A stretch of DNA of 64,000 bases from Selaginella moellendorffii (taxonomy: Eukaryota; Plantae; Lycopodiophyta): contig NW_003314325.1 in NCBI RefSeq assembly GCF_000143415.4, positions 553,419 through 617,418 of the forward strand, given 5' to 3'. Position 1 is the first letter of the stretch. Every line of letters starts with the position of its first letter. The notes under the pieces were generated by a model. It was not told the DNA's origin. It was given only the letters and a program-made list of their open reading frames with translations, and searched no databases. Made by a program: the position numbers and the translations under genes. Positions 7,675-56,997 of this stretch are shown here, piece after piece.

Positions 7675-7691
7675 CGGCCTTCCATTATTCC

Positions 7692-7706
7692 GAGAGGAGG
7701 GGATGA
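7692..7706 (+). promoter_or_regulatory. Polypurine tract of element 1
   Basis: GAGAGGAGGGGATGA immediately before the 3' LTR. Confidence 0.9.
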
Positions 7707-11171: not shown

Positions 11172-11203
<32 letters not shown>

Positions 11204-11866
11204 CCGGTCTCGGTCTCGACTTCGGACTCCATCTCGGACTCCATCTCGGACTCCATCTCGGACTCCATCTCGGGTCCATCTCGGGTCCATCTCGGACTCC
11301 ATCTCGGACTCCATCTCGGGTCCATCTCGGACTCCATCTCGGACTCTCTCTCGGGTCCATCTCGGGTCCACCTCGGACTCCATCTCGGACTCCATCTCGG
11401 ACTCCATCTCGGGTCCATCTCGGACTCCACCTCGGACTCCAACTCGGGTCCATCTCGGGTCCACCTCGGACTCCACTTCGGACTCCATCTCGGGTCCATC
11501 TCGGGTCCACCTCGGACTCCACTTCGGACTCCATCTCGGACTCCATCTCGGGTCCATCTCGGACTCCACTTCGGACTCCAACTCGGGTCCATCTCGGACT
11601 CCACTTCGGACTCCAACTCGAGTCCATCTCGGACACTCCCACGTGTCATGTGTTGGTCCTTTTGGGTCCCTTTTTGGAGCCTCGCTTTTTGCTCGCTTCG
11701 TGCTTGTTCCTCAAGCCCTTCTTTGGGAGTTCCACTCCTGCTCTTGACTTTTCAAGTCGGAGCTTTTGGTCCAAATGTGTTACGCTCGTTTGGCTCTCGC
11801 TTCAGCCACTACCACGTGGCACCCTTTCCGGCTCCACTTTGGGGCCTAGGGATTTTGTGTCTCACA
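10068..11866 (-). repeat. 3' LTR of element 3 (1799 bp)
   Basis: TGTAAG...CTCACA; near-identical to 15917-17757. Confidence 0.95.
11070..11640. repeat. Tandem array of CTCGG(A/T/G) hexamers and CTCGGACTCCAT 12-mers inside the LTR
   Basis: Directly visible; gives rise to the spurious GLGL/SDSD/RDRD ORFs. Confidence 0.95.
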
Positions 11867-13029: not shown

Positions 13030-13393
13030 GACCCCGAGGGCATCCCCCACACTTGGCGGTGCGCCCAAGCCAGCCCTTCCGGCCAAGGGTCCATAGCAAC
13101 TGAGATTAGGTGTCCCCATCTCACTCACCATGTCCTTGGTGCCACTTGCACCAAAGCGTTCAAGTTAGATATGCCGAGCTTTCACACTAAGCAATCTAAC
13201 CGTGCATCACGACTCCGAGGCATCCCTCGCTTGGCGGTGTGCCCAAACCAGTCTCCCCACTGAGAGTCCATGACCACCGAAATATGAGTGTCCTCATATT
13301 CCAAACCATCACCACGCCCTAGTGATTTGGGACTCGAACCCAAGCACTAGAGGGTCGGGACTCGAACCCAACCTCCGTATATGCATCTACGGA
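13030..13393 (-). ncRNA. Putative structured cis-acting RNA module (two junction copies plus T-loop hairpins) in element 3
   Basis: Homologous to 50228-50433 with compensatory base changes in several stems; see findings. Confidence 0.7.
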
Positions 13394-15901
13394 CGGCATC
13401 ACACAAGATGCCTGGCGTGACTCCCCACGCCGGTGCACCAACTTATTTTTAAAGCGCGCTACAGATCACAGCTTAGGAACCTAGTTCCTCCACACTGCCA
13501 AGTCCTCTCACTTGACATGTCTGTGATCATGCATGGACTCCTCCATGCTCGGCCCCATGGCCCACCCTTTTTGAAGTTATCACCTTCAACTAGGGTATTT
13601 GTTCCCCCGATGTGCCAATTTCGCTTGGCAAGTCCTCCGACCACTGTAACATGGTTCCTGCATAAGCGTGAAAGCCCTTGACTATCAACTTTCGTTCAAA
13701 GCCCTATCTTTGAACACTCGGGAACTACTTCCCTAACCTTGATAGCCTTGCCTCATGGCAAGCTTCAAGACCACGCTTCTGCTGCGCCACTCTGATTTCG
13801 CGCGTTCTATGAACCATTTACACTTGGCCTTTCTAGGTACTAAGCTACCTAGAATCGTCTTTGGGAACCTTGAAGGAACTCTGTCCCTCAACTTGCCAAG
13901 GCCTCCCTTTTTGCAAGCCTTCAAAATGCCACATAGTCTAACATGGACAATTCCATATTTTAGACTCTCCATGGCATTACGGTTGCTAGCGGCAACACCC
14001 TCGAGCCCCCACTTGATTCTCCACTCCCAGCTGGCATAACCAACCTTGGTTATGCCCTTTGATTCCTATGATTCGGTTCTATCCCCTTACTTTTTGCTTT
14101 TTGGCTTCACACCTTTCCTTTGGTCATTCTCCTCCAGACCAGGGGGATAGCTTTGCACTTTCTATCACGCTTTAGCAAGTATTCTTAGGGATGAACCTAC
14201 CCAATAGCCTATGGAGTGGTTCCTTAATCCGGGTATGCTCACCTTATAATCCCACACACTGGGATTACATTGTTGCTTATGGGCCTTTACATGGCCATCA
14301 CTAGCCTTGCCAAAATTCTATTTTTGGCTTTGTCCAACTCGGGTAGACAGTCCTCTCCTGTCTCCGCAACCTTGGACACTTGGATAGCACCTTCTATCCA
14401 TCATTCGCTAGGGACTTAGTCCCTTGGGCTTTATCCATTGCCCTCACGACATCAAACACCACCTTCTGGTGTTCTAGAGTATCCGGGTGTCCCAATGATG
14501 GCTTTCTTGACAATGAATATTTCCTTTTATGACATTGACTTACTATATCGCAACACAAGCAACTTATCCCTCGTAAGGGTATATCCAACTTCCTTATGCT
14601 ATTAAGAAGTCTTGGGTAGCTACCTTCTACCCGTTTAACCAGTTATTTTGCACCTCTTGCTTAGTTGCCTCATAGTTGTCAAGTCTTACAACTCATTGCT
14701 TGGTGCTTTCACACCCTCATCATTATCTGGGTCACCACACTCCAACTGCATGCTCTGCAGCTTAGGCTATGCCATTCCCATTTCCATTGGGATTCCTTTG
14801 GCAAGGGGTTCTCATGAACCCACCAACATAGCCTCAAGGTATCACACCTTGGCACATATGGTGTCTCCACACCATCGGCTCCACGAGCCTACCTCTATGA
14901 CATTTCCCCTTCGTGTCTAAGTCTTTGCCAAGACCAACACCGCTGTTTCTCATGCCAACCATCCGTTAGCACTGCCCTATAGAGGTCACACACAACTTTA
15001 TGTCAAAGTTGTTTTCTTCTGGGAACACCTTTCCCATAACTTTAGCATGGCATATTTTGCCATCGATGAGATACCCTCTGTTCTCATCCTTGGATCATAT
15101 GATCCCCCCCCATCCTTTATGGGGTACAACACACCTCAGTCCAAATGCTTCCATCAGTCCTTTTAGGACCATCCGTTGACTCTACTTGAGTCATCCAGCA
15201 GTTTTGGACTTGGTTAATCCACAGACCCGTAAGGTCCTACTTGTGAGGCACTAGCTCACTGGAATACACTTCTTGCATTCCTGTCCTATTCAAAAGGACT
15301 ATTTTCACAAGTGTTACTCCGACACTTGATTTTGTTCTCTGGGGCAACCTTTGCCCCTTAGGACTACTTGTCCATATGATGAGAACACCAACTCATCCAC
15401 TTAATACACCCCCAACTCCTGGGGTTGTTCCAGCATTTATTAGAGGTAGCCCCGGCTACCATTTCAAGGACTTAAGTCCTCTTCCGTATTTGACCTTCCA
15501 CGGTCATTACCTTTGGTCTCACATTCATGAGCACTAACCTCAACTATATGAGGATAATCTTGTGACTCCTTTATTGTTTTGGAGTCTCTATCTTTCCCGT
15601 GATCCCAACTTTAGTTGTTTACCACAACAACCTTAGCCAATTTGCTGAGACAAATGCTCATCCGGATCACATCCTCAACTCAATGAGGAAAACCTTGCAC
15701 TGTTCCCAAGATCCCAAAGTCATTCCATTATTGGCCCTTTTCTATCCACCACCTCGTCTACAAGTTCACACATGAACTGTAATGGAGAGCCATGTCTTCC
15801 CGACTTGCTACTCCTCAAGGATAGGCCCACTCCTCGGACCTTCCGATGCCAACACTAGTGGTGATATACTTGAGCACCAATAACAGTCGGACTAAGGAAC
15901 A

Positions 15902-15913
15902 GCTCCGATACCA
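15902..15913 (-). promoter_or_regulatory. PBS, initiator tRNA-Met (element 3)
   Basis: Minus strand reads TGGTATCGGAGC, 3 nt inside the LTR boundary. Confidence 0.9.
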
Positions 15914-15916
15914 AAT

Positions 15917-17757
15917 TGTAAGTGACTGAATTTTCCATTCTACTTTAGTCACTTAACCACACCTCTGACCACTTGGAGGAGTCTCATTCACAACCTCCAT
16001 AAGTCCAATCCAGGACTTGGGACTTGCTAGCCCCAAGAATGGCATCCATGCCACTCAACATTTGCCCTTGGTCCAAGTGCTCCACGTGTCCGATCCCATG
16101 ACCGACACTCAAAGGTACCACCGACATAGCAGCCCATTACGCTAAGGCCATGCCCAATCACCTTTGCCACACTGGTAGTCCAATACCACTTGCATCATAG
16201 TCTTGGCTCTCCAAGTCTGGGCCATCTGTCCATGAGTGGTCATCCTAGATCCACTCCTTAGCATCCTTAGGATGCCCATAGACCGGGGGAATCGCCTTCC
16301 CCAAAGTCCCTTTGTCAGTTCCTACCAAGTCCCTTTCTGCCCCTGGCCGTGTTTGCCAACACTGCCACTGGATCGAGGCCCACAGGCCTGACCACTAAGT
16401 CCCACGGTCCTCTGGGACTTCCTCACCACACAACTGTGTCCTTGGTCACTACCCCAGAGGACTGCTCCTCTTCCCTTCCACAGTCTAGGCCTTTGGGACA
16501 ACATTTCGGAACACCGTGGCCTTACGCGAGCCACCTGGGTACTCTCCCCGCCTTTCGCCTTTAGGTGCTCTAGCCATGGGCTTAGAGCGAGGTTCCGTTG
16601 AGCCACGCCTGGTATCCAAGTAGGTAGTGCCACCCACAATTGGACTGGGAGCATCGGCCAGTCGATCTCCCGGGGGAACTAGAGCCGGCTCTTGAACACT
16701 TCACCAAGCTACCCTGCTTGTCGGTTCGTATTCACTCTAGTCTTGGACTTCCCAGTGGTCAGTTCCTCACCCAACACTGGGTCTAGCATTCCTGGGCCAA
16801 ACTGGCCTTTCCTGGCCAAACTGGCTCCACTGCAGTCCTCCCCCTTACTATACTTTTGGAGCTCACCAAACCCCCCAGGGTCTGGGAGACGAACGCTTTG
16901 GGCTTTCACCCTCTCAGGCTCCGGACTCGGACTCGGACTCGGACTCGGACTCGGACTCGGACTCGGACTCGGATTCGGACTCGGACTCGGGCTCGGGCTC
17001 GGTCTCGGCCTCAGCCTCGGTCTCGGTCTCGGTCCCGATCTCGGTCTCGGTCTTGGTCTTGGTCTCGGTCCCGGTCTCGGTCTCGACTTCGGACTCCATC
17101 TCGGACTCCATCTCGGACTCCATCTCGGACTCCATCTCGGACTCCATCTCGGACTCCATCTCGGGTCCATCTCGGGTCCATCTCAGACTCCATCTCGGAC
17201 TCCATCTCGGGTCCATCTCGGACTCCATCTCGGACTCCATTTCGGGTCCATCTCGGGTCCACCTCGGACTCCATCTCGGACTCCATCTCGGACTCCATCT
17301 CTGGTCCATCTCGGACTCCACCTCGGACTCCAACTCGGGTCCATCTCGGGTCCACCTCGGACTCCACTTCGAACTCCATCTCGGGTCCATCTCGGGTCCA
17401 CCTCGGACTCCACTTCGGACTCCATCTCGGACTCCATCTCGGGTCCATCTCGGACTCCACTTCGGACTCCAACTCGGGTCCATCTCGGACTCCACTTCGG
17501 ACTCCAACTCGAGTCCATCTCGGACACTCCCATGTGTCATGTGTTGGTCCTTTTGGGTCCCTTTTTGGAGCCTCGCTTTTTACTCGCTTCGTGCTTGTTC
17601 CTCGAGCCCTTCTTTGGGAGTTCCACTCCCGCTCTTGACTTTTCAAGTCGGAGCTTTTGGTCCAAACGTGTTACGCTCGTTTGGCTCTCGCTTCAGCCAC
17701 TACCACGTGGCACCCTTTCCGGCTCCACTTTGGGGCCTAGGGATTTTGTGTCTCACA
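15917..17757 (-). repeat. 5' LTR of element 3 (1841 bp)
   Basis: Direct repeat of 10068-11866; the extra length comes from the tandem array at about 16919-17530. Confidence 0.95.
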
Positions 17758-17762
17758 GCGGA

Positions 17763-20420
17763 GTCCTTGGGCATGTGAACCTCATCTTGTGACGAAGCTT
17801 GATGAGAGTATTCGTTTCTGCATCGACTATCGTCCGTTAAACGAAGTGACGATCCCAAATGTGTACCCTCTTCCTCACACTGCTGATCTCTTGGATCGTC
17901 TGGGGTGAAGTTGTTGGTTCACAAAGCTAGATCTTGCTTTTGGGTACTGACAAGTATCGATGGCCAAAGAAGATATTCCTAAGATTACTTTTCGTACACC
18001 ATTTGGTTTGTACGAGTTCTTGGTGATGCCGTTTGGTTTAAACAATGCTTCAGCAACTTTCTAGCGGATGATGGACGAGGTTCTTTGCGATATGCTGGAG
18101 GTGACTGCTGACTTCATTGATGATGTCTTGATTCAATCGGAGGGGACGTGGGAGGAGCACGTTTGTGATGTTTGTAAAGTGTTGGATAGGCTACGCGACG
18201 TTGGTTTAAAGCTAAAGCAGTCGAAGTGCGTGTTTGGGTCCAAGGATACAACTTGTCTTGGGTACCGTATTTCTCGTGAGGGTTTGCAAGTTGATCCTGA
18301 CAAACTTGTGGCTATTCTAAAGTTCCCTACTCCGAAGTGTGTGAATGATGTGCAGCGCTTCTTGGGCAAGGTGCAGTATCTCGGTCGTTTTGTGGATCAT
18401 CTTTCTGACCGCACTGCACCATTGCGAGCGTTGCTGAAGTCATCAACATCATCTTTCATCTGGTTTCTGGATTGTGAGCGGGCGTTCGGGGATCTCAAAG
18501 AGCTGTTGACGACTCCTCTGGTTTTGGCATATCTTGACTACACTCAACCTTTTATTTTTCGCATGGATGCTTCTGACATTGGTCTTGGAGGTGTGTTGAT
18601 GCAAGAGAGCTCGAGTGTGCTTGGTCAATGCCATCCCATTGCGTATATAAGTCGTACGTTACAACCAGCGGAAATGAACTACTTTACGACAGAGAAGGAG
18701 TGTTTAGCAGCAGTTTGGGGTTTCGAGAAACTTCATGCATATCTACATGGTTCTCGGACGTTACTTGAAGGTGATCATGCTGCTGTTACTTCATTATTGA
18801 AGCGGAAGAACTTGGTGGGTCGTACTACTCGTTGGGCTTTGAAGCTTCAGATATATAATTTTGATGTTGTTCATTGCCCAGGGAGTTCTATGGTTGATGC
18901 TGATGCCCTTTCTCGAGCTCCTCTTCCTTCTCCATTCTCTTCTCATGTTTCTAACGAGCCTGTTGTTCTAGCCTCTGTGGATTTTCTAGACAAGGATTCT
19001 GTGCCGTCGGCGGTTGTTGTACTTGACGTTCAATGTTCACAAGGCGCAGAGCAAGATCTACCTTCTCTTGATGAGGTTCGCGAGACTCAACAAATTGGGC
19101 CGTGGATTCGAAGGCTTTGAGATGGGTTTGAGAATCCTGCATCACTTGCTGATGACTTGCCTTTCTGGCATTTCCATTCTCAATATCGCCTTGAAGATGG
19201 CCTTTTTTATTTTGTAGGGACGGATCCTGATGATCATTTACGATTGGTGGTGCCTTCTATCTTTATTCCACGGTTTCTCCATGCCTACCATGATTCTCCT
19301 ATTCTAGGTGGGCATATGGGACATCGTCATGTAACCAAGAAGCTGCGCAGGTCTTTCTATTGGCCGGAGATGCGACGTGATATTATCCGGTATGTGCGTA
19401 GCTGTGTTTGGTGCCAAGCTTGTAATACTCCCCCTCGGGCTGTGGAAAGACAGTTGGAGTCAATTTCAATTTCCCGTCCATTTAAGTTGGTGGCATTTGA
19501 TCTTATGGGACCTTTTCCACGGTCAACTACTGGCAATGAGTATGTTATTGTTGCTTCTGACTACTTGACTCATTAGGTGGAAGTTGGTGCTCTCGCTAGC
19601 ACCTTTGCAACTGCTGTTGGATACTTCCTCCTCAACTGTGTGGTGTTCCAACATTCTTGTCTAGAGTGGATTCTTTCGGATAATGGTCCCGCATTTATGG
19701 CTGAGGCATTTCATGTTTTGATGTCTCGGTTGGGGATACGCCACACGTTCACGAGTGCTTATCATCCACAATTAGACGGTCTGGTGGAACGGCTCGTTCG
19801 GACATTCAAGGGGATAATTGCGAAGTATGTGAACTTTTAGCATTCAGATTGGGATAGTTATTTGCCATCTCTTCGGTATACATATGTCACAAGGGTGCAG
19901 AGTTCTGTTGGTGCTTCACCATATAAACTCCTATATGGTCATGATCCAATATTACCAATGGAGCTGGGTTTACCTTTGTGATTGCCACGAGTTGCTGATG
20001 CTAGGTCATGGAATCAGTATTTGATGAGCATCCTTCCCTTTGTCCGAGTAGAGTCTGCCGAACACTTAGGCCATGTACAAGTGGGACAACAACGATGGTA
20101 CAACTCCCATCATCGTCCACCTGTGGAGTACAAAGTGGATGATTTGGTGTTAGTCCGTTTTCCCCATCTTACGGTACGTGGTTTATCTAAGGGGCTCCTT
20201 GCGGAGTGGAAAAAACCGTATCGGGTGTTGTGGCAAGTTGGACCACAAGTTTATGAGGTTCGGCATGACGTCCAGTAGGCCGATCCTCCAGAGATTGTGC
20301 ATGTGCAGTGGTTGAAATGTTTTATATAAAGGGACCAGGAGCAGTTAATACCACTTACAAATCCGCCGATGCCTCCTCTTGACGTTCCTTCAGATCCCGG
20401 CCCATTTACAAGCCTTGATG
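17763..20420 (+). pseudogene. Element 2 RT-RH-IN, disrupted
   Basis: Resumes exactly where 10067 stopped; aligns with 5014-7674; multiple stops. Confidence 0.92.
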
Positions 20421-21303
20421 ATCTTCCATTATTCCGAGAGAAGGGGATGATGTGAGGGCCAAGTGTACAGTTACAATGCCGTATACTAATATTAGCGTAG
20501 TGGGATTTTGGTAGCCATCGGATTGGTTTCAATTTGGACCACTCGCTCCTATATATAAGGTAGGATTTTTGGGCTAATTGATATGCATATTTTCTGTATT
20601 CTCTTTCCATATTCCAAGCACTTACAAGACTAGATAATTTCATTAAAGGATTATTTATCCTAAATTCTATAAATTTTTTTAAAAAATTAATCCTATTTGT
20701 CCTTTTCATTCTTATAATTTGATGATAAATCCTTGTGCTTAACAAAAATCTTCTCTGAATTATTGCAACTACTTTGTTGAAAAATGTCATTCCTGATAAT
20801 CTATATTTTTAGATTTGAGTTTGATTATTTATTATTCCAAAAATAGTCACATTTATAGCTAACATTAAAAATCAATTTTAAAAACTGATTAAATAATATT
20901 CTATAATCTAGAAAAGTCAATTTTTAAATATAAAATAATTTAAAATGGTTAATAAAGCTAATGTTAAATATTTAGAACTATTGTTAAACTTGCACAAGAC
21001 AATCCACAAAACCTGGTTGTCAATGCGCGGAATTTGGGGCTGCTGGAGCGGCAAATCCTCATGGACAATCTCATCTAGGTCAAAATATAGCTTTTCATGT
21101 GCAAAATATCATATACCACGTGGCATTTATAGTTTGGTTCTCATAACCTTTATAAAGAGCCTGTAATGAGACCGAGTTTAGGCGGTTTTGGATCGTTTAT
21201 GAAAATTACCGTGTATAACAAAGTGAATCATGCAAAGCGACTTGCAGTGTTGTGAACTAACACGTCAGGTACTACACGCCTACGTGGCAAAAACACGTGG
21301 CAG

Positions 21304-24300
21304 TTATGGAAGTGCAAGCTCCGAGATGAGCTCTTTGAAACCTTCCTCCTCGCGAATGAATTCCACCCAGCGAGCGTTGATCCGGACTCTCTCCACGCAC
21401 TGGCTCACTGTTCGCTCGATCGCCAGCATCCCATGCTGGCGGAAAAACTCTTCAATCTCGTCGGCCTTTTCCTGGCTCGAAAACTGGGCAAAGAAAGAAG
21501 AACGAGAATTTTCACAACCAAGTTCGAGGTCACTGAGATTACCGAAGTTGTAGTGGTGACGAAGCGACTGATAAGAAATCCGCTGTCACCCCATCGACTG
21601 CGGAGAAGGCTCCAGTTTTCCTGCTTACACGGTTATGGTCTAGCAAAGCATGTAGTGTTTGTACCTTTAGCCAAGACCAGGCAGTCTCGCGGCCTTCCCT
21701 GCGAACTCCACCGAGTACGAAAAACGCATCCTGGTTACGAACCTGCGCGCAAAAATGCGAGTTTGCTTGCAAAGCGAACAATGAAAACTGGTATCCAGCT
21801 TACTTCGTCCGTAAGTATCAAGTTCAATGCTTCCCGAACGACTTCAGTATCACTTGACGCCGCAAGGCATGCTGCAACGGGAGATGTTAGTAAAACCGGA
21901 GTCGTGCCAGAGAACAACAGTACATAGAATCCGTGTTCGTTCCTGGCCCAGGTCTGTTTCCCTGTAGATCTGGAGCAATGCATCATATCCAGATTTGTCG
22001 GCAGCGGTTACGCTTCGCATTACAGCCGAGTATGCAGCCTGCAACGCAACAGAGGATTAAAAAACGCCAGTAAAAGTCGGCAACACTTACCTTTCTTATG
22101 TCTGCAGGTAGCCTCGAAGTATTTCTATCCTTCAAAAACTCGTAAAAACGCTCTTTGGCTTCGATGACGGTTGGTTCATGGCCAAAAAGCACAAGAGCCA
22201 ACATAAGATCCCCTCGGAGCATAGAGACGAGGTCACTTTCTCCGGGAACAGCGTCCCATCCAACGTTTCTGAGCAAAACAAGCACAGGTATAAAATATTA
22301 TTTTTGAAAGCGGCTCGTTACTTGGCTGGAGCGAGAAGCAGTCTTGAGAGGAAGCCTTTTGTATCTTCAGCAACAGCAGGAATAGCGTCGGCCAAAATCC
22401 ATGATACACCTCTCGACACCTGTGACGATTATTTTCAGTTCCGGACAACAAACAACGATCCCTTACTGTAATAAGGTGGCCCAGGACAGCTGGATCAGCC
22501 TCAGCGCTGTAAGCTTCCATCAAAGACAGTAAAACTCGCATTGGTTCTCGACAAGCTTTACACAAAGCGTAAATATCATCCAGAACACCTGAAAGAAAGA
22601 ATTTCAGCACACAATCCGAAGCAATAAGTAAAATTTACCAAATCTATCGTCAGGCTGGAGATATCCTCCAGATATTGCAGACCGAAGACTCGCAGCTAGA
22701 TGATCGTCATACTGGACTCTGTAGAAGCCTGTTTGGCCGACGTTGAGTTTTATCCACTTCCCTTTGGATTTTGTGTCCACTTCATGAGATATCGGGATTC
22801 GAGCGGATGTGCCTCGGACCAACGAAGTTTTGTACGAATCATATGAGTTGCAACACAAGGTGAGGGGTATGACCCACTCACCAAAGCCTGGTTGTCCGGT
22901 TGATAGAAACTGGGACTGCGCACGAAAAAGATTAATATTGGAAAGGGAGAGCTGACTTTACCTGATGAAGCTCAAGAGCATCGCCAACTAGCTTGACAGC
23001 CAAAACAGGGTAACCCTTCTGTTTTGTCCAGGAATTCATCAGCTCTTTAACCGGTTGTCCTGACTCTGATGAAAGAGAATCCCACAAATCCTCTGTTGCA
23101 GCATTCCTATAAGCAAACTTTTTGATATACGATGCAAGCCCTTTCTGAAAGAAAAATTCAGTATTTTAAGCAATCCGGTAAACCACTCTACCTGAAAAGT
23201 CTTAGCACAAAGGTAAGTTTGCAGCATACGAATGATAGATGCACCCTTTTTGTAGCTGATAGCGTCAAAAATCTCGTCGATCTCACGAACGTGACCAACT
23301 TCAACCTCAATTGGATGGGATTCAACAAGGCCGTCCAGTCTATAAGCGTCAACAGTCAGCTCGTTGAATTGAGTCCAGACTTTCCATTCCGGAAATAAGT
23401 AGTCTGCTGCCAAGTAACTAACCTGCAAAACATTTTCCATTCTAGAAGTTAAACTTATTCTCTAAGCAACCAGCTTACCCAGGTTGCAAAACCTTCATTT
23501 AGCCAAAGATGCGTCCACCATTCCATTGTAACAAGATTTCCAAACCACTGATGAGCAAGCTCGTGAGTGACAACAACAGCAACCTGAAAATGCACAACAC
23601 TCGGTAAAGACACCAAACAATGAACTAGAATGTAATACTCGTTGCTTGTTCGCGGCAGCCGAATGCTTCTCATCAAAGAGAAGAGCAGTCTCACGGTAAG
23701 TAACAAGGCCATAGTTTTCCATTGCTCCAGCTGCGAAGTCAGGAATAGCCACCATATCCATTTTAGGAAGGGGATACGGAGTCTCGAAGTATCTGAAGTA
23801 AAATCAAGATTTAGGAACATATACAATTTGTTTTGAACGTACTCCGTATAAAAAGGAAGTGTTTCCACAGCCACACCGAGCGCAAATTTCCCTAGTTCAG
23901 CTTTTCCTGGCAAAGTATAAACACGAACACTCGTGCCTGGAAGACCAAGTTAAATGCATGCTAACAACATACGAAAGGGCATACCATCTCTAGTAGTCCC
24001 TTCTAGATAGCTCAGCTCTCCAACGACAACAGCTACCAAGTACGTAGACATAATTGGAGTTACTTGAAACTCTACAACTTTAGAATCCCCCGACATTTTC
24101 TCGTTTTCCACGGGCATGTTTGACAACACCACGCGATCTGCCGGAGCTTCAATAACAATCTTGAAAGTAGCCTATGAAACAAAGACGAAAACTAAAAAAC
24201 ATAAGCACCAGAGCTGAAAAAAAATTCTACCTTGAAAGACGGCTCGTCCCAGGACGGGAAACACCTACGAGCATCAGCAGGCTCGAACTGTGTCACAGCC

Positions 24301-31123: not shown

Positions 31124-33125
31124 TCAACAGAGAAGCCGCCTAGTTCTCCTGGAAGACATGTCCGACCTCATCCTCTTGCAAAGCTTCTCCAGCTCCGACA
31201 CCTTGGCCTGCATCTTGTTGATATCCGACTTGAGCTCTTCGTTTTGGCGAATGATCAGTCCAAACTCGGGCGATGGCTGATCGACAGCGCTAGGAGCGGC
31301 GGAAGGATGATTCACCGCAGGTACTGGTGCTTCTTTGTATCTCGAGCTGTCACTCACTCTCAGTCCTTCCTTGAAGAAGCAGTGATCGATGGTGTCTCTG
31401 AGCTTGGCTTGCTGGAGAAGAAGAATCTGGAGTGCCAATCGTGCTGGGAACCGTGGGTTTTGCGCAGCATGCTTGCATCCCTCGAACGACAGCTTCTGGT
31501 AATTCACCACCTTGCAAAGTTCCATGGTTTCGGACTCCGAGACTGCTGGATGTGCCTGCTCCATGCGACAAACGTTCCATGGTGAGCGAGCTTTTAGTTG
31601 CAAAGTTTCTTCTTCTAACGTGAGTTTGCAACAGGAAAGAAGAACACTTACCTGCAGATACAAATCCAAAGCTCGGTAGAGCCCGTCGTGCATGAGCCTG
31701 GCCGAGTCCGGCAGTGCTTTGGCCACTGACTTAAACTTGAAAGGCTTAAGCTGTGGATCCGCTGCGATCTCCACCAGGTATTTATCAATCAGATCCGCAA
31801 CTTTTGTCAGCGAGTGCTCGAACTTTGTCAGGGCCCTACGGAAGGACGATCCTGACGGTGGCTGAGAAGCCATGATAGGACCGTTGATTGGAGTTGGGAA
31901 AGTCATCTCCGAGAAGATGTCTTGATCGCTCAGGAACCTGTCAATCAGCCTCAGGACGAGATCAACGTCGTAGAGAGAGCCACTTCCAGTCGGCCGCAGT
32001 GGAATGACGATGTCGTCCAGGGAAGCTTTGTCCAGCTGGTGGCCGATCATCTTCTCCAGCTGCTTCCGGCACGAACGTCCCGAGTTGAGAGCCGAAGTAA
32101 CTCGTAGCAATCCAAACAGAGAAGAGCAGGGAGCCGAGCCGTGATCTAAGTGTCCCAGCAGTGCGATGACCGTCTCCAGAAGCTCACGCTGGACCTTTTG
32201 CGTGTACTTCTGGAGGATGTGCTCGTCCCTGGTGGTGGAAGCGGTCGACCTCTGGTGGTGGGAATGGTAGCCGAGCGTTGGGAGCGCGGTCTGGACGTAG
32301 TGAACCAAGAACCTGGCCAGGATCCGGTTGTCCATGTTGTTGGAGATCATCGCCTTGACAATTCTCTCCATGAGATACATGGAGAGCGAGCAGACGTCGT
32401 CGAACCACCAAGTTCTCGAGAGGCGTTTGTTGTTGGCGCTGCTGCTCTGGTTTGAAGATGAATCCGGAGAGGTGGAGCTCGTCGGACTCTGGCAAGTGGA
32501 GCTGATGGTGGAGGCTTTCCAGGCCAGGGACTCGACGCACCTGTGGACGATGTGCGTCTTCTCCGCGTAAGGCAGCACGGGCTCGCAGCTCCGGAGGATG
32601 AGCAGCACCTCGTTCCAGCTCCAGAACACCAAATTCTGTAAGAAGTTCTCGGTTTCTTTGATCAGATTCCTGGGACTAAACTCCTCTGTCATTTCCATGT
32701 ACTCGGCGATGCAGCGGAGGAGAGAGACGTTGGCGGCCGTAATGTGGAAGCCTCCGCCGCGTGGAGATCCGCTCGAGTGCCAGTAGCAAAACCGAGCTGC
32801 GAGCTCGAAAGCCTGCGGGCCTCCTGGAAGATCGTGAAAGGCAACACGCAAGGCATTGACGCGACAAGCTGTGAGAATCGTTGTTCCTCGGATGATCTTG
32901 GCGAGGCGTCCACATCTATTGACCAGAGGATCCTAGAGCAAAGAGAGATCAAAGTAAGTCAAAGTTTTCTATCGCTCGTTTGTTCACGCTAGGTGTTGGA
33001 TGGATTCTATCTAACTGGTGTCTACTCACTTGTGCCAGGACGAAAGTGTGCTCTCCGTTCACTTCGACCTCCAGGAGCCTGTGCATTGGATCTTCGAGGA
33101 AGAGCTCCTGCTGCTTGTTCTTCAT
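31124..33125 (-). CDS. BTB/POZ-NPH3 family (NRL) protein
   Basis: LEVEVNGEHTF, DLPGGPQAFELAARFCY, WWFDD, LYDVDLV.R, HDGLYRALDLYLQ|AHP, KLSFEGCKHAAQNPRFP, C-terminal coiled coil; two introns. Confidence 0.92.
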
Positions 33126-33359
33126 CGTCCCCGCGTCGCCCTCTACCTCGATCGATCCATCCCAGCTCGCTGCCGTTGTTGCTAGCTTCTTAAATCTCCA
33201 GCGAGTTCCCGGAGGGAATCAAGGGGAGGGACGAGAAAACGGTGGAGCAAATCGTGTTGCGTAAAATCGATCTCCTTTGGGAAGTTTCAAACACTAGTGG
33301 GTGGGAAAAAATTTATTAAACCGAACTTAACAAAAGGTTACGTTAAGCCAGAAACTATT

Positions 33360-33431
33360 TGCTCTCAGTGAGGATCGAACTCACGACCTTTCGCTTACGA
33401 AGCGAACGCACTACCACTATGCTATGAAAGC
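33360..33431 (-). tRNA. tRNA-Thr(CGU)
   Basis: Minus strand GCTTTCATAGCATAGTGGTAGTGCGTTCGCTTCGTAAGCGAAAGGTCGTGAGTTCGATCCTCACTGAGAGCA folds into a cloverleaf with anticodon CGT; T6 run about 50 nt downstream. Confidence 0.95.
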
Positions 33432-33512
33432 ATGACAATGCGTCCTTGATATGCCAGCTAATCGAATGCTAAACCAGCTATTTGTCATCGATTTTGGGGA
33501 AGAGCTTAGCCC

Positions 33513-42275: not shown

Positions 42276-43188
42276 ATGACCTCCGAAGCTCTGAAGATGA
42301 TCCACCTGGTAGTGACTCTTGGATTGAATTCTTGACGAGGATTATATATAGGTGCGGCATGCTGAGGCTGAACACAATGGTTTCCATTCGCCGGGCCATG
42401 TCTTCGATCCGGTTCTCAAGCCCGCTGGCTGGAAGCAAGTAAGAGAAATAGAAAATATAACAGGATTTTACAGTCGGGTTTTAGGTGGAGCAACTCCGGA
42501 AGCATATTGTAGCCACGGGCTTGATGCGTGAAGTTAAGCTAGTTGTGGTTTCTCCTTTGACGCGGTAAGCACAGGACCAGCGCTTTCAGGACATTACAAA
42601 CGGCTGTAGGTGTGTTTGGGGTGCGGCATGGCAGCGAACGAATCTCCAGTCCACCGCCTCTTGTTGCCTTGGACCTGTGCAGGGAGCTCATGGTACGTTC
42701 AGTTCATGCATCACTGAGATCTTTTGTGTTTTTGTGTTTGCCAGATTCCTTCTGGAGCCACCAAGAGGAGGTCCATTAGTGAAAGCAAGTTTCAATTTCC
42801 CGAAGTGGATTTTTCGCAGGTGGCCATTTTTTCTTTCTTTCATATTATAAATTGTGATTTACTTTTCATAGATCGAGGATGATGAAGACGTGCTGTGGAA
42901 ACCCAACCGAGAATCAAGGGAGTCCTTTGATGCACGGCGGAGATCTTTCTTGCAATGGTAAATCAAACTCTTATGACTGTTTTCAGCAGTTGCCTTTTGA
43001 GCAGGTTGACGTTTCGTGAAGAGAAGAACATCGCGGTTGTTTCCCATGGCGCCTTTCTCAAAAACCTGGTGAATAGTCGTGATGAAGATGGGTCAAGATT
43101 TTGTGGTGACCAGAAAACCTCAAACTTTTCAAATTGTGAGCTTTTCTCCATCGCTCTTCATCTCAAGCCAAGTTCGTCGCTGTGCTAA
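42276..43188 (+). CDS. Phosphoglycerate mutase-like histidine phosphatase, multi-exon
   Basis: MTSEALKMIHL|VRHAEAEHN across a 43-nt intron (42309-42351), FDPVLKPAGWKQ, LVVVSPLTR, FPEVDFSQ|IEDDEDVLW, IAVVSHGAFL, FSNCEL. Confidence 0.85.
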
Positions 43189-48320: not shown

Positions 48321-49016
48321 TGGCTTTCCATACCCACTCCTCACTTTTTGTATCAAACCCAAATTAGTAATATTAAACTTTAAGTCATATTAAGCTATAC
48401 AATCAGAATAATGCTATTATAGTAGAATAAAAAATATTTTTTATTTTATAAATTTAGATACTAGAACAAATTTGAGTAATTGATAATTGACTCAAGGTGA
48501 TTTAAGAGGTGGTCTGCCTATATAAGCAATGAGGTGGCATGCAAGTATAAATTAAAAAGGGGGAAGCAGAGGCCATTAAACCCCAAAGAATGTTCTCCTT
48601 CATAGTTTTCTTAGTATCTCATCATCAAAGGAATTCACACAATAACACTATGATCTCTCATCTTATCTAAAACTTTGTGAGCATCTAACATGCTCCCACA
48701 CTTTCAATGTGTATAAATCAAGATATTCCTTGAACAAGAACACGGCCCTTTGGAGTTTAGGGCTCCTTCTCTAGGGATTTTAGTACACCACAATTATGTT
48801 TACTCACTAGAAATGAGTGAGAATCTCTAAGAAATTGTTTTAGATTTATCCAATCTATTCACATGTACTTTTTGCCCTAAGTTTGAATTTACACCAAATA
48901 GGTTATTTCATTTCATTTATCAAACATAACTTCCTCCTTAGCAAGTATCCCTTGACTTCATGATGTATTAAGAGGCATATATCATTAACTGTCTCTAGTT
49001 ATTGGCACTAGCATAA

Positions 49017-50165
49017 TGTAAGCCACAAATTTTTCCTTTCCAATTTGCCAGCTTACCTTGTTTATCCGTCCAACACTGCCTTGGCTTTTGCTAAGTTCCC
49101 TCGCCAAGGTTCTCGCCTATGGTACCAGCTCCTACTTGGTTTCAGCTACTCACTGCACGAGCAACGGAGTGTTAGCCATCCTTCCACGGATTCCCAAATC
49201 ACTCCCAATCCCCCTCCCCGGGTTAGACTGGACTTAAGGTTCGGCTACACTCCCCGCAAGCACAAGCAGCCAAGCACACCAAGCTTCCAGGTTCCTAACA
49301 TCCCTTGGTACCACAAGACTTGATCATGGGACCCTCTAAATCCCAAGTCTTGAGTGCAACACTTGCTTCGGGATGCCGGGGCGAAACACCGTGGCCTAGC
49401 GGCCCGGTATGGGTACCTCTCGCCCCCCACTTCCATCCCGAAGGAAGGCCCAAGCCCCTAGGAAGGGCGAGGACCAATGAGCCGCATGGTACTCAAGTGG
49501 GGCACCACTCCACATGAGCCGGGAGCATCGCAATCGGTTTCCCTTTCGGGAGTGGGAGCTGCTCTTGAGCACTTCCTTGGATGGCCCCTCCGGCACCAGC
49601 CAAGTCCATGCTCACTCCCACCCAAGGCCCCTCGGTCCCAGTCTCAACCTCAAGTCGGTTTGGAAGCCCAACTGGAGAGTCCCTTCAAAACTGGTTCCTG
49701 GACCTCACTATCCCTACTATACTTTTGGAACCCCCTGCAGCCCCCCCCCCCTGGGAGACGCACGCTTTGGGCTTTCACCCCTTGACCCGTATTAGTATTT
49801 GGACTTAGTCTCTGGCTCGATCTCGGACCCGATTTCGGATCCGACTTCGGATTCGGGTTCGGACTCGATCACGGACTCGATCTCGGACCTGATCTCGGAC
49901 CCGACCTTGGACTCGACCTCGGACTCGGTCTCGGACCCGATTTCGGATCTCGGACTCCGTCTCGAACTCGGTCTCGAACTCGGACTCGAACTCGGTCCCC
50001 GAGTCGGTCTCGGACTCGATTCCGGACTCTATCTCGAACTCGGTCCTAGAGTCGGTCTTGGACTCGATCCTCGACTTGGTCCCATCCGATGAACTCTTTG
50101 TCATTTCGGTCAAGCTTTTTGGGGATCCTTTAGTCTACGACATCTCGGGGAGTCGGTTCCTTACA
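49017..50165 (-). repeat. 3' LTR of element 4, with CTCGGA-type array at about 49808-50090
   Basis: Direct repeat of 55401-56549. Confidence 0.96.
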
Positions 50166-50227
50166 ACTCCACCACCCATAGAAGAAGTTCGATGCCCACA
50201 TCGAACGTCTCATTTTATCCTACGACT

Positions 50228-50433
50228 TGTTGACCATGTCTCCGGGGGCATCCCCCCACTTAGCGGTGTGCCTAAGTTAGCCTCCCCGGCCAAGAGCCCA
50301 TGACAACGGAATATAGGTGTCCCTATACTCCTCACCTCACCACGCCCTAGTATGGGGTCGGGACTTGAACCCAGCCTTGCTTTACTAGGGGGTTGGGACT
50401 CGAACCCAACCTCCGTAGAATACGTCTACGGAT
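50228..50433 (-). ncRNA. Putative structured cis-acting RNA in the 3' UTR of element 4
   Basis: Consecutive hairpins and a four-way junction, with compensatory changes relative to 13030-13393. Confidence 0.7.
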
Positions 50434-50568
50434 TCGACACCCCCGCGGGGAGTCGGGCGTAGTGCCCTATGCCTGGTCGACCTATCCAACCCATGCTAAT
50501 TAGCTTACCTTTGGCGCGCCTTCGGGTCCCAACATATGCCACTTGCTCAACTTTGCAAATTGATATTT

Positions 50569-53500
50569 TTAATTGAATTTTGCATAAGTACATAGAGTTC
50601 TGCCTTGCAGAAATTCCTCCACTAGATCTCGCGCGTTCGCTAGGTTCTCCTCCGGTTCCCATGTTGCTTCACAGTGTGGAAATCCTTTCCACTTCACATG
50701 GAACTCTCTCACCTCGCGTCCTTGTCGCTTGCTCTTGCGCGCATTGAGGATGGCCTCGACTTCGTATTCCTCTTCCCCTTGGATAACCTCAGGTAAAGGT
50801 CTCACTTGGCCCTTGCGAAGCGGATCCTCAAAGTACGGCTTGAGTAAGTTCACGTGGAACACTGGGTGCATCTTCCCCATCTCTCGAGGAAGTCGGAGTC
50901 GGTAAGCCACTTTACCGATTCGTGCCTCAATTTCATAAGGCCCCGCGAACCTGCTTAAGGAACTCAAGATCATATCATTTACAGGAATACATGCATCTTT
51001 ACCTTTGGGTCAACTTTCGGCTGATCCCACTTGGTAGCCTGAGGTTCTTGGTGTTCAGCCACACCTTCTCCCCAGCTTGGAACTCCACATCCCGACGCTT
51101 TTGGTTCGCGTACTTAGTTTGCCTTTGTTGAGCCCGTTCCAAGGAATCCCTCACTAGATTCCAAATGTTGAGTCTTTCCGCCGTGAATGCCTCCACTGCG
51201 GGTAACTCTCCATGATACTCGGCCACGCCGAGTTCCACAGGACCTTCAATAGCTCGCCCATTGATGACTTCCCATGGACTCACCCCGATGCTTGAGTGTG
51301 GTGAGTTGTTATAACACATTTCCGCAAGTCCCAAATGACTTACCCAGTCGGTCTGGTCTCCCGAGACATAGCATCGCAAATAATCCTCCAGCTGCCTATT
51401 CACCCTTTCTGTTTGTCCGTCTGTCAAGAAGTGTTAGTGCCATCAATCTTGACTTAATACCCATTACCTGTCTGTGGGTGATAGGCTGTGCTGAATTTCA
51501 ATTTGGTGCGATACTGTTCTAGGAGTGTCCTCCAGAACCTACTAGTGAAGATCTTATCTCGATCTGAGATAATCTCTTCCGGCCTTCCCCGCACTCGAAC
51601 CACTTGTTCGAAGAACAGCTTCGCCACACCTTCCACATCCACGTCCGTTGTGGTGGGTATGAAATGTGCCATCTTTGAAAATCGGTCCACCACCACGAAT
51701 ATCGCATCGAACCCCTCGCTTGGGGGTAGTCCCGTGATGAAGTCCATCGTAAGACATTTCCATGGGCGATCTGGAATTGGGATGCTTTGCAACAAGCCCC
51801 CACTAGCCTTAGTCACGGCTTTGACCTGCTGACATGTTGGACATGTCTTTACATAGTCTTGGACGTCCTTAGCCATATCTGGCCAATGGTACTTCCTCTT
51901 GAGTAAGCCCATCGTCTTGGGCACTCCGCCGTGTCCCGCAAGAGGTCCGTCATGACACTCTTCTAAGGCTACCTTCCTTAGTCCCCCTTCTGGAACATAC
52001 ACCCTCGTTTGCTTGTAATAAATGAGTCCGTTGCGTTCCGCATAGCCCGTTTTCTCTTCCGTTGGCAACTCACCTCTCTGGTGAGCTTCCCGCGCCTCCA
52101 GATTCCTCAACAACACTTCTTGTGATAGACCATCATTCTCATATGCTGTCCGCACATCGTCCCAGAAGGTTGCTGTTGTGCTGGAGATCGCCAACCTCAA
52201 GCTCGCTTTTCGACTTAGCGCATCTGCCACGATGTTGCTCTTCCCAGGCTTGTACAGAATCTCGCAATCAAACTCGGCCAAGGCATTGGCCCACCGACCT
52301 TGTTTCCCTCTCAGGTCGGGTTGTGACAAGAAGTGTTTCGTTGCCACATTGTCCGTGTAAACCTTGAAGTGTCTCCCAAGGTAGTGTCGCCACTCCTTGA
52401 GCGCCTTGACCACCGCAAACAATTCCTTCTCGTGGGCAGGCCACTTCCGTTGAGCCTTGTCCAGCTTCTTCGAGAAGAACGCTACTGGATGGTTGTCTTG
52501 CTTCAAAACTGCGCCCAACGCAAAGTCCGAAGCATCCGTGTCTACCTCAAAGTCCTTACCAAAATCTAGTGATGCCAACATCGGAGCCTTCCTCAACTTC
52601 CCTTTGAGGTGGACGAATGCCGCCTCGCATTCCGCTGTCCATACCATCTTCCCTTTTCCCGTTTGATCCGTTAAGGGCAGAGCTACTCTCGAATAGTGTC
52701 TGATAAACTTTCGATAGTAGTTGCATAGCCCCAAGAACGCCCTCAACTCATGTACATTCGATGGTCGCTCCCATTCCTGGATCGCTTGGACCTTCTCCGG
52801 GTCCACCTTGAGCCCGTCCTGGCCCACCACATGCCCGAGAAACTTTACCTCTTGCTGAGCAAAGTCACAGTTGCTCTCTTTAGCATACAGTTTATGTTCC
52901 CTTAGTTTCTCAAACACCTTCGCCAAGTGTTCGGCATGCTCCTCTAGCGTCTCGCTATAGATCAGGATGTCGTCAATATAGACGACCACGAAGTGATCCA
53001 GATAGGGTACAAAGATGTGGTTCATCAATGCCGAAAACGTTGCCGGCGCATTGCACAGCCCAAAGGGCATCACCAAAAACTCAAAGCTCCCATACCTCGT
53101 TCGACAGGTTGTCTTCTCGACATCTTCCTCGGCTACCCTGATCTGGTAGTATCCTGACCTTAGGTCAATCCTCGAGAAGTATTTTGCCTTTCCCAACCTA
53201 TCGAACAGGTCCTCAATCCTGGGCAAAGGGTACTTGTTCTTCTTTGTATACTTGTTGAGCAACCGGTAGTCTATGCACATGCGCATAGATCCATCTTTCT
53301 TTTTCACAAATAATACCGGCGCCCCATACGGCGACTTGCTCAACCTAACATACCCTTTGCCCACCAACTCCTCTAGTTGGCACTTGAGCTCCTTGAGTTC
53401 TTTTTCGTTCAAACGATAGGGGGGACGAACCACCGCCTCAGCACCCTCGACCAGCTCAATCTTATGTTCTATCGGTCGTGCGGGGGGTAACCCCGCCGGT

Positions 53501-55341
53501 AGCTCCTCCGGCATGGTATCCTGGAATTGGTCCAACACCCGCTGGATCACTAAAGGTACTTCTTTCGTTCCTGTCTTTTTGTCACTCTTCACCGAGAGTA
53601 AGCACAAAAAGGCTGCCTTAGTTCCTTTAGTGAGTTGTCCTCTCGTGGACACCAGGTTTAAGCAAGATTCTTTAGCCTTGCTTTGCCCTACCTTTAGATC
53701 CTGGGCCTCCACCCTAGATCTTCTTCCTTGGGCATTCGCCAGTACCACAAGGTTCCTACCTTGTCCATGCAGGGCTACCACAAACCGATTGAACCAATCC
53801 ATTCCGAAGATCACGTCAAATCCCGCCATGTCCAACACGGTGAAATCCATGTCTACTTTCCATGTCCCTACTTCGACTTTCGCTTGTCGAAGTACCTCAT
53901 CGGTGCTTTGGCTACCTTGAACAAACTCTATAGTCCTTGGTTCGCCTAGCCGTTGCACCGTTAGTCCGGCTTGCCGGACTATGTTTGCAGCCACAAAATT
54001 ATCCGAAGCACCCGTGTCAATAAGGATCTTAACAAAGCTACCTCCGAGCTTCCCTCGGAGGGCTAGTAGATGTCGCGAACGACTCTCTACCAAAGTTGCT
54101 CGTGTAATGAGTAACTTTGAGTTAGGGACTGGATCACATACCTCATTTTGGACTTCACCCGACTTGATGGCCATATTGACTCTGGCCTTCTTCGGGTAGG
54201 GACATTCCCTCGAAAAGTGTCCCGCTTCACCGCAGTTGTAGCATATGTTGTTTCCCACGCTGCTATACGACTTGACCTTCTTATCCGTGGGTTTGTCTCT
54301 TTTCGCTTGACTCCCCCACGTACTTGCTTGCTGGCCACCGGATTTGCCTTTCCAGAACCCCGAGGACTCATTCTTAGAGAAACTCTTCTTGAATTTCCCC
54401 CTGCTATATGTTCCCCTTGGTTTGGCCCCTTTGCTAAACGTGGATCCCGACCCCGTCGTGTTCCCCTTTCGCAGGTTATCATTGAAATGCACCTTGATGG
54501 CCGCATCCAACGCTTCCTTGTAGTTGGTCGGGTTCCAGCGCATCACCTCGCCGCGAGCCCAGGTTTGCAAACCTGATATGAAGGCATGGAACGCATCCAT
54601 ATCCCCCATGTCCGTGACAAGTATCCTCTTTGCCATGAACCCATTCACATATTCCTGGATGGTTCCAGTCTGCTTCAGCCTACTCAGTTCATCCCTCAGA
54701 TGCAGAGTGGCATTCGGAGGAACATATGTTGCGCGGATCCTCGCCTTCATCATGTCCCAAGTGACCACCGGTCCTTCGTTGGCCTCCGTTGTTCTCCACC
54801 AAGACTTGGCATTATCTGCCAAGTATGGTTTTGCACATGGGACCTTCTTCGAGCTTGGTAACCGCAACGCTCGGAAGTAGTCCTCCATATCATAAAACCA
54901 ATCCTCCACCACCTTATAGTCATTCACTCCCTTGAAGACCGGTGGGGGCTTTGGTTTGTACTTGGGAATTGCCTGAGGGACTGATTCCACTTCAGTCTGT
55001 TCGACCTTGTCTGGTTTTGCCTCAGTCCCTGCCGAAGGGTCCACACCTTCTGCGCTGCCAGCATCCGCAGTCTTTCGCCTTTTCTTCCGCTTCTCGTCAC
55101 GCTTTAGCTTGCGTACGAGAGTCTCCAGCAGGGCATTGGTCTACACCAATTGACCTTCTAGAACGTCCAATCGAGCCTTGGACGACCGAACCTCGCCACC
55201 GGACTCCTGTTTGGAAGTTTCCTCACTGGAGTCCTCCTCATGCAAGGATTCCTCATCCATAGCCTCTTGTTCAACCGGAGGCTCCAGCTCTGGCGGAGGT
55301 TCCGTCTCCACCTGGGTTCGCTTACGCCCTGCCCTTGCCAT
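50569..55341 (-). CDS. gag-pol: Gag-Pol polyprotein with chromodomain; two introns in integrase; one in-frame TAG at 55141-55143
   Basis: [61 protein letters not shown]...VKWKG...TWEPEENL. Exons 55341-51468, 51420-51003, 50950-50569. Confidence 0.92.
50951..51002 (-). other. 52-nt spliceosomal intron in integrase (intron 2)
   Basis: AG|GTAAAG...TTAAGCAG|GT; removal restores RKLTQ-R-FAGPY. Confidence 0.85.
51421..51467 (-). other. 47-nt spliceosomal intron in integrase (intron 1)
   Basis: CAG|GTAATG...CACTAAC...TTGACAG|; removal restores [14 protein letters not shown]. Confidence 0.88.
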
Positions 55342-55385
55342 CTCCCAGCAATCCGCCTCTATCCTTCGCTAGAACTAAGGAAGAG

Positions 55386-55397
55386 GCTCCGATACCA
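55386..55397 (-). promoter_or_regulatory. PBS, initiator tRNA-Met (element 4)
   Basis: TGGTATCGGAGC on the minus strand, same as element 3. Confidence 0.9.
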
Positions 55398-55400
55398 AAT

Positions 55401-56549
55401 TGTAAGCCACAAATTTTTCCTTTCCAATTTGCCAGCTTACCTCGTCTATCCGTCCAACATTGCCTTGGCTTTTGCTAAGTTCCCTCGCCAAGGTTCTCGC
55501 CTATGGTACCAGCTCCTACTTGGTTTCAGCTACTCACTGCACGAGCAACGGAGTGTTAGCCATCCTTCCACGGATTCCCAAATCACTCCCAATCCCCCTC
55601 CCCGGGTTAGACTGGACTTAAGGTTCGGCTACACTCCCCGCAAGCACAAGCAACCAAGCACACCAAGCTTCCAGGTTCCTAACATCCCTTGGTACCACAA
55701 GACTTGATCATGGGACCCTCTAAATCCCAAGTTTTGAGTGCAACACTTGCTTCGGGATGCCGGGGCGAAACACCGTGGCCTAGCGGCCCAATATGGGTAC
55801 CTCTCGCCCCCCACTTCCATCCCGAAGGAAGGCCCAAGCCCCTAGGAAGGGCGAGGACCAATGAGCCGCATGGTACTCAAGTGGGGCACCACTCCACATG
55901 AGCCGGGAGCACCACAATCGGTTTCCCTTTCGGGAGTGGGAGCTGCTCTTGAGCACTTCCTTGGATGGCCCCTCCGGCACCAGCCAAGTCCATGCTCACT
56001 CCCACCCAAGGCCCCTCGGTCCCAGTTTCAACCTCAAGTCGGTTTGGAAGCCCAACTGGAGAGTCCCTTCAAAACTGGTTCCTGGACCTCACTATCCCTA
56101 CTATACTTTTGGAACCCCCTGCAGCCCCCCCCCCCCCCCTGGGAGACGCACGCTTTGGGCTTTCACCCCTTGACCCGTATTAGTATTTGGACTTAGTCTC
56201 TGGCTCGATTTCGGACCCGATTTCGGATCCGACTTCGGATTCGGGTTCGGACTCGATCACGGACTCGATCTCGGACCCGATCTCGGACCCGACCTCGGAC
56301 TCGACCTCGGACTCGGTCTCGGACCCGATTTCGGATCTCGGACTCCGTCTCGAACTCGGTCTCGAACTCGGACTCGAACTCGGTCCCCGAGTCGGTCTCG
56401 GACTCGATTCCGGACTCTATCTCGAACTCGGTCCTAGAGTCGGTCTTGGACTCGATCCTCGACTTGGTCCCATCCGATGAACTCTTTGTCATTTCGGTCA
56501 AGCTTTTTGGGGATCCTTTAGTTTACGACATCTCGGGGAGTCGGTTACA
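55401..56549 (-). repeat. 5' LTR of element 4
   Basis: Direct repeat of 49017-50165. Confidence 0.96.
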
Positions 56550-56997
56550 CATAAGCTCATATTCATACTCATAACAACCTTAAACATGCTAATGCAGAAA
56601 CAAATCTAGGCCTTGAACATACTAATGCAGAAATTACTTAATTATGCTAATATAATGCACATATAGTCTCTCCTTTACAAGACTAATATTTTCTTAGTTG
56701 AGAATGCAGGTGAGGGCAAGGATTGGGGTTGTTTTCTAGTGAGTTTAACCTACTTTACTTGGCTTAAGATTTGAGCCTCCCTAAGAAAAAAAGTCATTTC
56801 ATTAGCACCAACCTAGATCCAAGGCAATGGTGATGTAGAGTTCTACCTTAGTCCACAAAGTTCATTACAAATAGCTATTGGTGTGTATGACATGTTGGAT
56901 GGCAGGGAATGAACCACCATTGTTGCTTTGGAATTATGGAGGGAGTATCAATTTGAGCCAATCATGTTTCATTTCATTTTTTAGAGATATAATGAAT

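Follow-up and report, generated by a model that had tools for sequence, protein, structure and literature searches.

The window analysed here, a stretch of 64,000 nt, contains a Ty3/gypsy chromovirus of 7,533 bp on the minus strand (49017-56549), on which all the parts of the element described below also lie. The element is bounded by two LTRs of 1,149 bp with TG...CA ends. The 5' LTR (55401-56549) contains short tandem repeats and has a poly-G tract of 15 nt, that of the 3' LTR (49017-50165) being 11 nt long. It is flanked by the target-site duplication (TSD) TTATG, at 56550-56554 on the 5' side and 49012-49016 on the 3' side. Next to the 5' LTR is a 13-nt PBS (55385-55397), which we take to be of the tRNA-Met type, in agreement with the PBS type published for SM1-Galahad; a polypurine-tract-like segment (50166-50179) adjoins the 3' LTR. 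The coding region is divided into three exons. Exon 1 (51468-55341) encodes Gag with its CCHC knuckle, the protease, RT, RNase H, the integrase HHCC and the first two catalytic Asp residues. Exon 2 (51003-51420; 418 nt) encodes the catalytic Glu, the remainder of the integrase core and the start of the C-terminal domain, and the coding part of exon 3 (50569-50950) a Tf2-1-like SH3 domain and a group I chromodomain (about 50766-50608). The insertions separating the exons lie exactly where the initial annotation had placed them: intron 1 (51421-51467; 47 nt, phase 1) and intron 2 (50951-51002; 52 nt, phase 2), both with GT..AG ends.

In Pfam searches, the Gag, CCHC, protease, RT, RNase H, integrase HHCC and rve matches shared one frame and followed the order Gag-PR-RT-RH-IN of a Ty3/gypsy chromovirus between the two LTRs, and SH3 and chromodomain matches followed in a frame further downstream. 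The chromodomain (PF00385, E-value 1.8e-16) lies C-terminal to the integrase and is in frame only with both introns removed. A Ginger DNA transposon, with terminal inverted repeats and no reverse transcriptase, was ruled out by the direct LTRs, the RT and the RNase H. The LTR pair was 98.8% identical, with 14 mismatches over 1,149 bp, all transitions, and two 4-nt indels, consistent with the earlier description of near-identical LTRs and an intact TSD. The intact 5-bp TSD and the LTR divergence of 1.2% indicate a fairly recent integrase-type insertion in which the introns were already present. The substitution rate of grasses is 1.3e-8 per site per year; at this rate, which may not be that of Selaginella, the insertion would be about 0.5 million years old. 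The window copy is not fully intact: it has an in-frame stop at gag codon 67 (55143-55141, minus strand), overlooked in the initial annotation, and is therefore probably not autonomous. This stop is probably private to the window copy, because the published consensus ORF of the family is open at the same length. The 3' LTR has four extra bases relative to the 5' LTR, immediately after the first three nucleotides (50165-50152 versus 56549-56540). Rfam searches gave no match across the whole element, and the coding region has no second copy elsewhere in the window.

The two introns have a GC content of 38% (intron 1) and 35% (intron 2), compared with 51-52% in the flanking coding DNA; only 2.6% and 0.3%, respectively, of the coding-region windows of equal size were as AT-rich. 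Neither length is divisible by three, and both introns break the frame. GT-AG ends were obtained in only one of the 17 registers tried per intron, namely the one proposed. The internal region contains 159 GTR..YAG segments of 40-80 nt, five of them as AT-rich as the introns, and four of these five were the introns themselves or shorter sub-segments of them. The branch-like motif reported for intron 1 was present (CTAAC), and the pattern that matched it found no such motif in intron 2. The plant donor consensus has a G at position +5, and this G is absent from both donors. The segments cited earlier as host introns (42309-42351 and 22039-22090), which we regard as putative introns, do have GT..AG ends. 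Window-wide, neither intron resembled any other segment beyond 11 nt. RNA folding at the intron regions was ordinary by comparison with shuffled sequences (z-scores of -0.98 and +0.33), and no packaging signal was found there. Short direct repeats flank the introns (5 nt for intron 1, 51421-51472; 4 nt for intron 2, 50949-51004); these may be traces of how the introns were gained, either through target duplication or through the repair of a staggered break. The splice signals dictate part of each repeat. Ribosomal frameshifting was rejected as an explanation for the breaks, which are AT-rich inserts of 47 and 52 nt missing in homologues; one of them contains a stop, and a public contig (X1, see below) lacks both.

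From the ATG at 55341, and counting through the gag stop, the unspliced frame runs for 1,295 codons to a TAA within intron 1 (51456-51454). The removal of intron 1 extends it to 1,431 codons, the retained intron 2 ending the frame at once, before most of the SH3 domain and the whole chromodomain; the removal of both introns gives 1,557 codons. The catalytic residues occupy codons 1200 (Asp, 51744), 1260 (Asp, 51564) and 1296 (Glu, 51409). Junction 1 falls in codon 1292, so intron 1 does lie between the second Asp and the catalytic Glu of the D,D35E motif, as initially annotated, and the Glu is missing from the unspliced product. Unspliced RNA accordingly encodes Gag-PR-RT-RH and an integrase cut four codons short of its catalytic Glu.

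Excision of the introns had also been said to restore the integrase without the gain or loss of a residue, and this was borne out. The D-to-E spacing is 35 once intron 1 is removed, and, on Ty3 Gag-Pol (PDB 7Q5B), exon 1 corresponds to the sequence up to residue 1268 and exon 2 to that from residue 1269 onwards. In a first set of homologues, junction 1 was ungapped in 14 of 14 sequences and junction 2 in all 11 that reached it. Among 150 further distant homologues, 143 were ungapped at junction 1 (two gapped, five not spanning it) and 122 at junction 2 (six gapped, 22 not spanning it). These observations support the conclusion that completion of the integrase requires splicing.

Four of 23 candidate public runs (hereafter referred to as X1, X3, X20 and X21) were aligned to positions 50400-52200. 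X1 and X3 are contigs, the RNA status of which is guessed; X20 is on record as raw RNA-seq, about 12% of which was sampled; X21 had no reads in the region and has no bearing on splicing. One X1 contig of 2,500 nt lacked 52 and 47 nt with CT..AC ends, corresponding exactly to both introns, with at least 255 nt on each side of the junctions and about 1,020 nt upstream of the aligned stretch, which would reach the RT if colinear. One of the five X20 reads in the region skipped intron 1. The RNA junction sought at 51467/51421 was therefore found, exactly, in the X1 contig and one X20 read; that sought at 51002/50951 was exact in the X1 contig and occurred in no raw read.

An X3 contig (50996-51606) retained intron 1 and had seven differences from the window, indicating that another copy or allele carries this intron. 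X3 contigs also reached 7 and 13 nt into intron 2, one from either side. X1 differed from the window at 20 listed variant sites, 18 of them shared with X3. Position 51410, 11 nt from intron 1, carries a variant seen on spliced (X1, X20) and retained (X3) molecules alike, which thus share a sub-lineage separate from that of the window copy; variants 51028-51029, near intron 2, were likewise present in spliced and retained molecules. The contigs may be mosaics, and X1 may be intron-less DNA and X3 DNA or pre-mRNA. As expected of U2-type introns, the GT-AG segments were removed exactly in RNA, intron 2 in a single molecule, the X1 contig of guessed RNA status. Overall, the transcript data, in which removal is exact, support the view that both segments are real spliceosomal introns, albeit with thin coverage on the RNA side.

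The one host gene tested (31127-31600) matched a protein of Selaginella moellendorffii at 99% identity. Novikov et al. (2012, PMC3350952) described in this species the SM1-Galahad family, with hundreds of copies of 95% average similarity and, in the available text, no putative intact copy among them. They placed it in the Galadriel/Galahad clade on the basis of an RT-RH-INT phylogeny. The published consensus is 7.5 kb long, with LTRs of 1,076/1,146 bp, TG...CA ends, poly-G tracts of 11-25 nt and a 13-bp tRNA-Met PBS. Its ORF1 (3,885 bp/1,295 aa) lacks a chromodomain and is followed by ORFs of 316 and 309 bp, the latter encoding a group I chromodomain (printed as 113 aa; 309 bp is 103 codons) (PMC3350952). 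The window copy (7,533 bp, LTRs of 1,149/1,149 bp, poly-G tracts of 15 and 11 nt) fits this description, with ORFs of 3,885 bp (through the gag stop), 318 bp and 309 bp for the published 3,885, 316 and 309. Size, LTRs, PBS, ORF split and host are all alike, the match being one of lengths and features rather than alignment; the sequence criterion for the family is a nucleotide identity of over 80% to its consensus.

The two accounts differ in that the ORF breaks of the published family (PMC3350952) are read here as introns removed by splicing, and a copy that bears them can therefore be complete. The stop of ORF1 lies inside intron 1 and the short ORFs are split by intron 2, and the consensus therefore almost certainly holds both introns; given the matching consensus ORF lengths, the introns are probably family-wide. 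This and the X3 contig with intron 1 largely refute the uniqueness of the insertions to the window copy, a possibility raised initially. The terms "intron" and "splic" do not occur in the main text of PMC3350952 as available, where the split is described as separate ORFs. The introns are thus a previously unrecognised feature of a known family. The sister family SM2-Galahad has a single 4,731-bp ORF, hundreds of copies and 99.7% identical LTRs (PMC3350952). Given this single ORF and the continuity of the distant homologues, the introns were likely gained in the SM1 line. Protein searches found no close relative, the best match having 50-52% identity; none of four exact protein look-ups matched, an Atlas protein search returned generic integrase fragments only, and 11 pattern matches in viral contigs included no relative. 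The 96 metagenome matches reduced to 11 distant loci, ten of them short fragments; at one locus (L005; 40%), a single frame continues across the intron 2 site.

Of the 25 variant sites in the aligned stretch, 24 fall in codons of the spliced frame: 15 are synonymous, eight missense and one a stop. The differences from the window common to X1 and X3, a subset picked post hoc, were synonymous in 14 of 18 cases, for an expectation of 22-33% (p 1e-6 to 1e-4). Exons 2 and 3 lie downstream of the unspliced stop and are never translated from unspliced RNA. Five of the six X1/X3-shared differences in these exons were synonymous (p 0.003-0.016); taking all differences there, six of 12 were synonymous, five missense and one a stop (p 0.03-0.16). 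This small signal suggests that the integrase after the introns was under constraint while the intron-bearing lineages diverged. One copy represented among the X3 and X20 molecules has an exon 2 stop; given this stop and that in the gag of the window copy, some transcribed copies are dead.

The reverse transcription of spliced RNA erases introns precisely, and reporter assays are based on this effect (PMC12786077). Hundreds of copies with both introns therefore imply that the family has been copied mostly from unspliced RNA. As the integrase requires splicing, its source must be spliced RNA or another family. We consider it likely that intron-retaining RNA serves as the genome and that spliced RNA supplies the integrase. 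The introns would have been gained after divergence from intron-free relatives and would then have survived many rounds of reverse transcription, with unspliced RNA as the template of most successful cDNA, whether because splicing was incomplete, because packaging was preferential, or for both reasons. The unspliced RNA would provide Gag-PR-RT-RH with a truncated integrase and would act as the genome. Removal of intron 1 completes the D,D35E core, and the SH3 domain and chromodomain are added once intron 2 is removed as well. The 1,557-codon Gag-Pol would come from a minority spliced mRNA, its integrase entering the same particles via the Gag part, and the outcome would be integrase and chromodomain levels held below those of RT and RNase H. 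In the splicing-gated integrase proposed by the initial annotation, the spliced introns, their presence in other copies and the dependence of the integrase on splicing stand; selective packaging and a regulatory gate are inferred.

A more elaborate form of this scheme, which we put forward tentatively, is a two-step switch. The unspliced RNA, without active integrase, would be selectively packaged; the removal of intron 1 alone would give a chromodomain-less but catalytically complete integrase, and the removal of both introns a chromatin-targeted form. If this were true, host splicing would set the amount and location of integration independently of reverse transcription.

Several other readings were weighed against this one. 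It is unlikely that the introns are tolerated passengers, inefficiently spliced, with both RNAs packaged proportionally, intron-less daughters rare or purged, and neither sorting nor regulation; information would flow in the same way as in the preferred reading. In keeping with such neutrality, the introns have no special structure or signal, both donors lack the +5 G, X3 consists mostly of retained forms and SM2-Galahad gets by on a single ORF (PMC3350952). Precise intron loss is, however, one-way and should sweep the family in the absence of sorting or selection, yet the consensus retains both introns, with no intact single-ORF copy described among hundreds (PMC3350952), and in X1 the doubly spliced molecule was the sole form assembled.

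The provision of integrase in trans by a relative such as SM2-Galahad, making the SM1 integrase dispensable and its introns tolerable, is improbable in view of the synonymous bias (5/6) of exons 2-3 between intron-bearing lineages, the intact D,D35E spacing and chromodomain, and the exactness of splicing. In its favour are the abundance of SM2-Galahad (hundreds of copies), the 99.7% identity of its LTRs and its single ORF (PMC3350952), together with the stops in the gag of the window copy and exon 2 of the X3 copy. The X1 contig could also have come from a hidden intron-less master, missed by the assembly or carried by another accession, which would supply integrase to derived, intron-bearing copies. 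X1 does differ from the window at 20 listed sites, its RNA status is guessed, and a contig alone cannot separate spliced RNA from intron-less DNA. However, 18 of these 20 variants recur in X3, several within about 30 nt of retained introns, the reference assembly is described as lacking an intact copy (PMC3350952), and the mobility of the intron-bearing copies would in any case have required unspliced RNA, all of which makes such a master very improbable. Finally, post-insertion damage private to the window copy, which does have at least one other private lesion (the gag stop), is scarcely credible, given intron 1 in an X3 contig with seven differences from the window, the ORF lengths shared by a multi-copy consensus (PMC3350952), and the exact excision of both introns in X1.

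The preferred reading, with unspliced RNA as genome and spliced RNA as integrase source, has parallels in other elements. Ogre (Ty3/gypsy, Tat) also retains an intron, which is spliced from a subset of transcripts for production of the full polyprotein (PMC6317226, PMC12786077). Here, by contrast, there are two introns of about 50 nt in the integrase, one of them within the catalytic triad, and RT and RNase H remain on the unspliced RNA. Membership of Ogre itself was rejected: Gag to RNase H form one frame, the introns are in the integrase, and a chromodomain is present, Ogre being a non-chromovirus. The known splicing of LTR elements had initially been called different in kind, but the logic is closer to that of Ogre than claimed, because Ogre too needs splicing to translate its enzymes. 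In the Ty1/copia elements EVADE (PMC5580714) and BARE1 (PMC3735527), spliced and unspliced pools also have different jobs, and BARE provides a case of separate RNA pools for translation and packaging in a plant element (PMC3735527). The polarity is opposite, splicing in Ty1/copia producing a Gag-only mRNA and the unspliced RNA the enzymes; according to the available text of the same study, no conserved splicing of the short-Gag type was found in Arabidopsis Ty3/gypsy elements (PMC5580714). Foamy viruses resemble the element in that a spliced pol mRNA encodes the enzymes and the full-length RNA is the genome, the level of pol being apparently set by a suboptimal splice site. They differ in that the splice removes gag to give a separate Pol, with no small intron within the integrase domain in the account available (PMC7828637).

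Penelope-like elements likewise keep spliceosomal introns through retrotransposition, and an intron has been inferred in a spikemoss family of this type; unlike the element described here, they lack both LTRs and a DDE integrase. Those of their introns that have been characterised lie in the 5' leader, and the majority of Naiad/Chlamys ORFs are continuous (PMC4209133, PMC8557442). Ginger1 DNA transposons have a gypsy-like integrase with one to four mostly GT-AG introns, but have terminal inverted repeats and no RT (PMC2836005); as they move as DNA, their introns need not survive reverse transcription. In the openly accessible literature covered, no report of introns inside an LTR-retrotransposon integrase was found; Repbase, Dfam, GyDB or REXdb may already annotate those described here. 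The available texts of PMC12477816, PMC6839031, PMC13192763, PMC2864245 and bioRxiv 2024.04.02.587720 contained no integrase-intron case, and "intron" and "splic" are not mentioned in PMC3783388.

The feature is a variant on a known splicing strategy, which here would gate only the integrase and chromodomain. An RNA intermediate is classically demonstrated by the loss of introns, and two introns in an element multiplying via RNA constitute a rare arrangement. Plant LTR elements are generally intron-free, with exceptions such as Ogre and EVADE, according to a 2025 review (PMC12786077). The introns are built-in markers that allow spliced and unspliced forms to be told apart in total RNA, particle RNA, cDNA and genomic copies, making the separation of genome RNA from messenger RNA directly testable. 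The preferred reading would recast a family described in print as devoid of intact copies, and calls for caution with ORF-based annotation, which scores such intron-bearing elements as dead.

Other LTR elements are present in the window. An element at about 9900-17700 (minus strand) has LTRs about 70% alike and a similar PBS and purine tract. It shares a 3' internal segment with the chromovirus, has no match to the Gag-Pol pieces of the latter and, to judge from these sequence features, is a candidate non-autonomous partner. The 3' untranslated regions of both elements contain a motif (50360-50407 and 13330-13369) that we take to resemble a tRNA T-arm; ARAGORN called neither motif. LTR elements derived from small RNAs have reportedly been described in one published study. 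Another gypsy family (2870-7880, plus strand), about 30% alike in Pol and with one stop (6826-6828), has an intron-free integrase in which both junction motifs are uninterrupted (ORF 6829-7674), and gave no chromodomain match to exon 3. Related pieces lie at 8000-10070 and 17740-20600. A motif of about 45-70 nt beside poly-G is common to the LTRs of three elements, in both orientations (10994, 16843, 49712, 56090, 57549 and 63693). Tandem repeats of about 12 nt in the LTRs (49800-50090, 56190-56480, 11050-11650 and 16900-17550) create long low-complexity reading frames. The window also contains a tRNA-Thr(CGT) gene on the minus strand (33359-33432).
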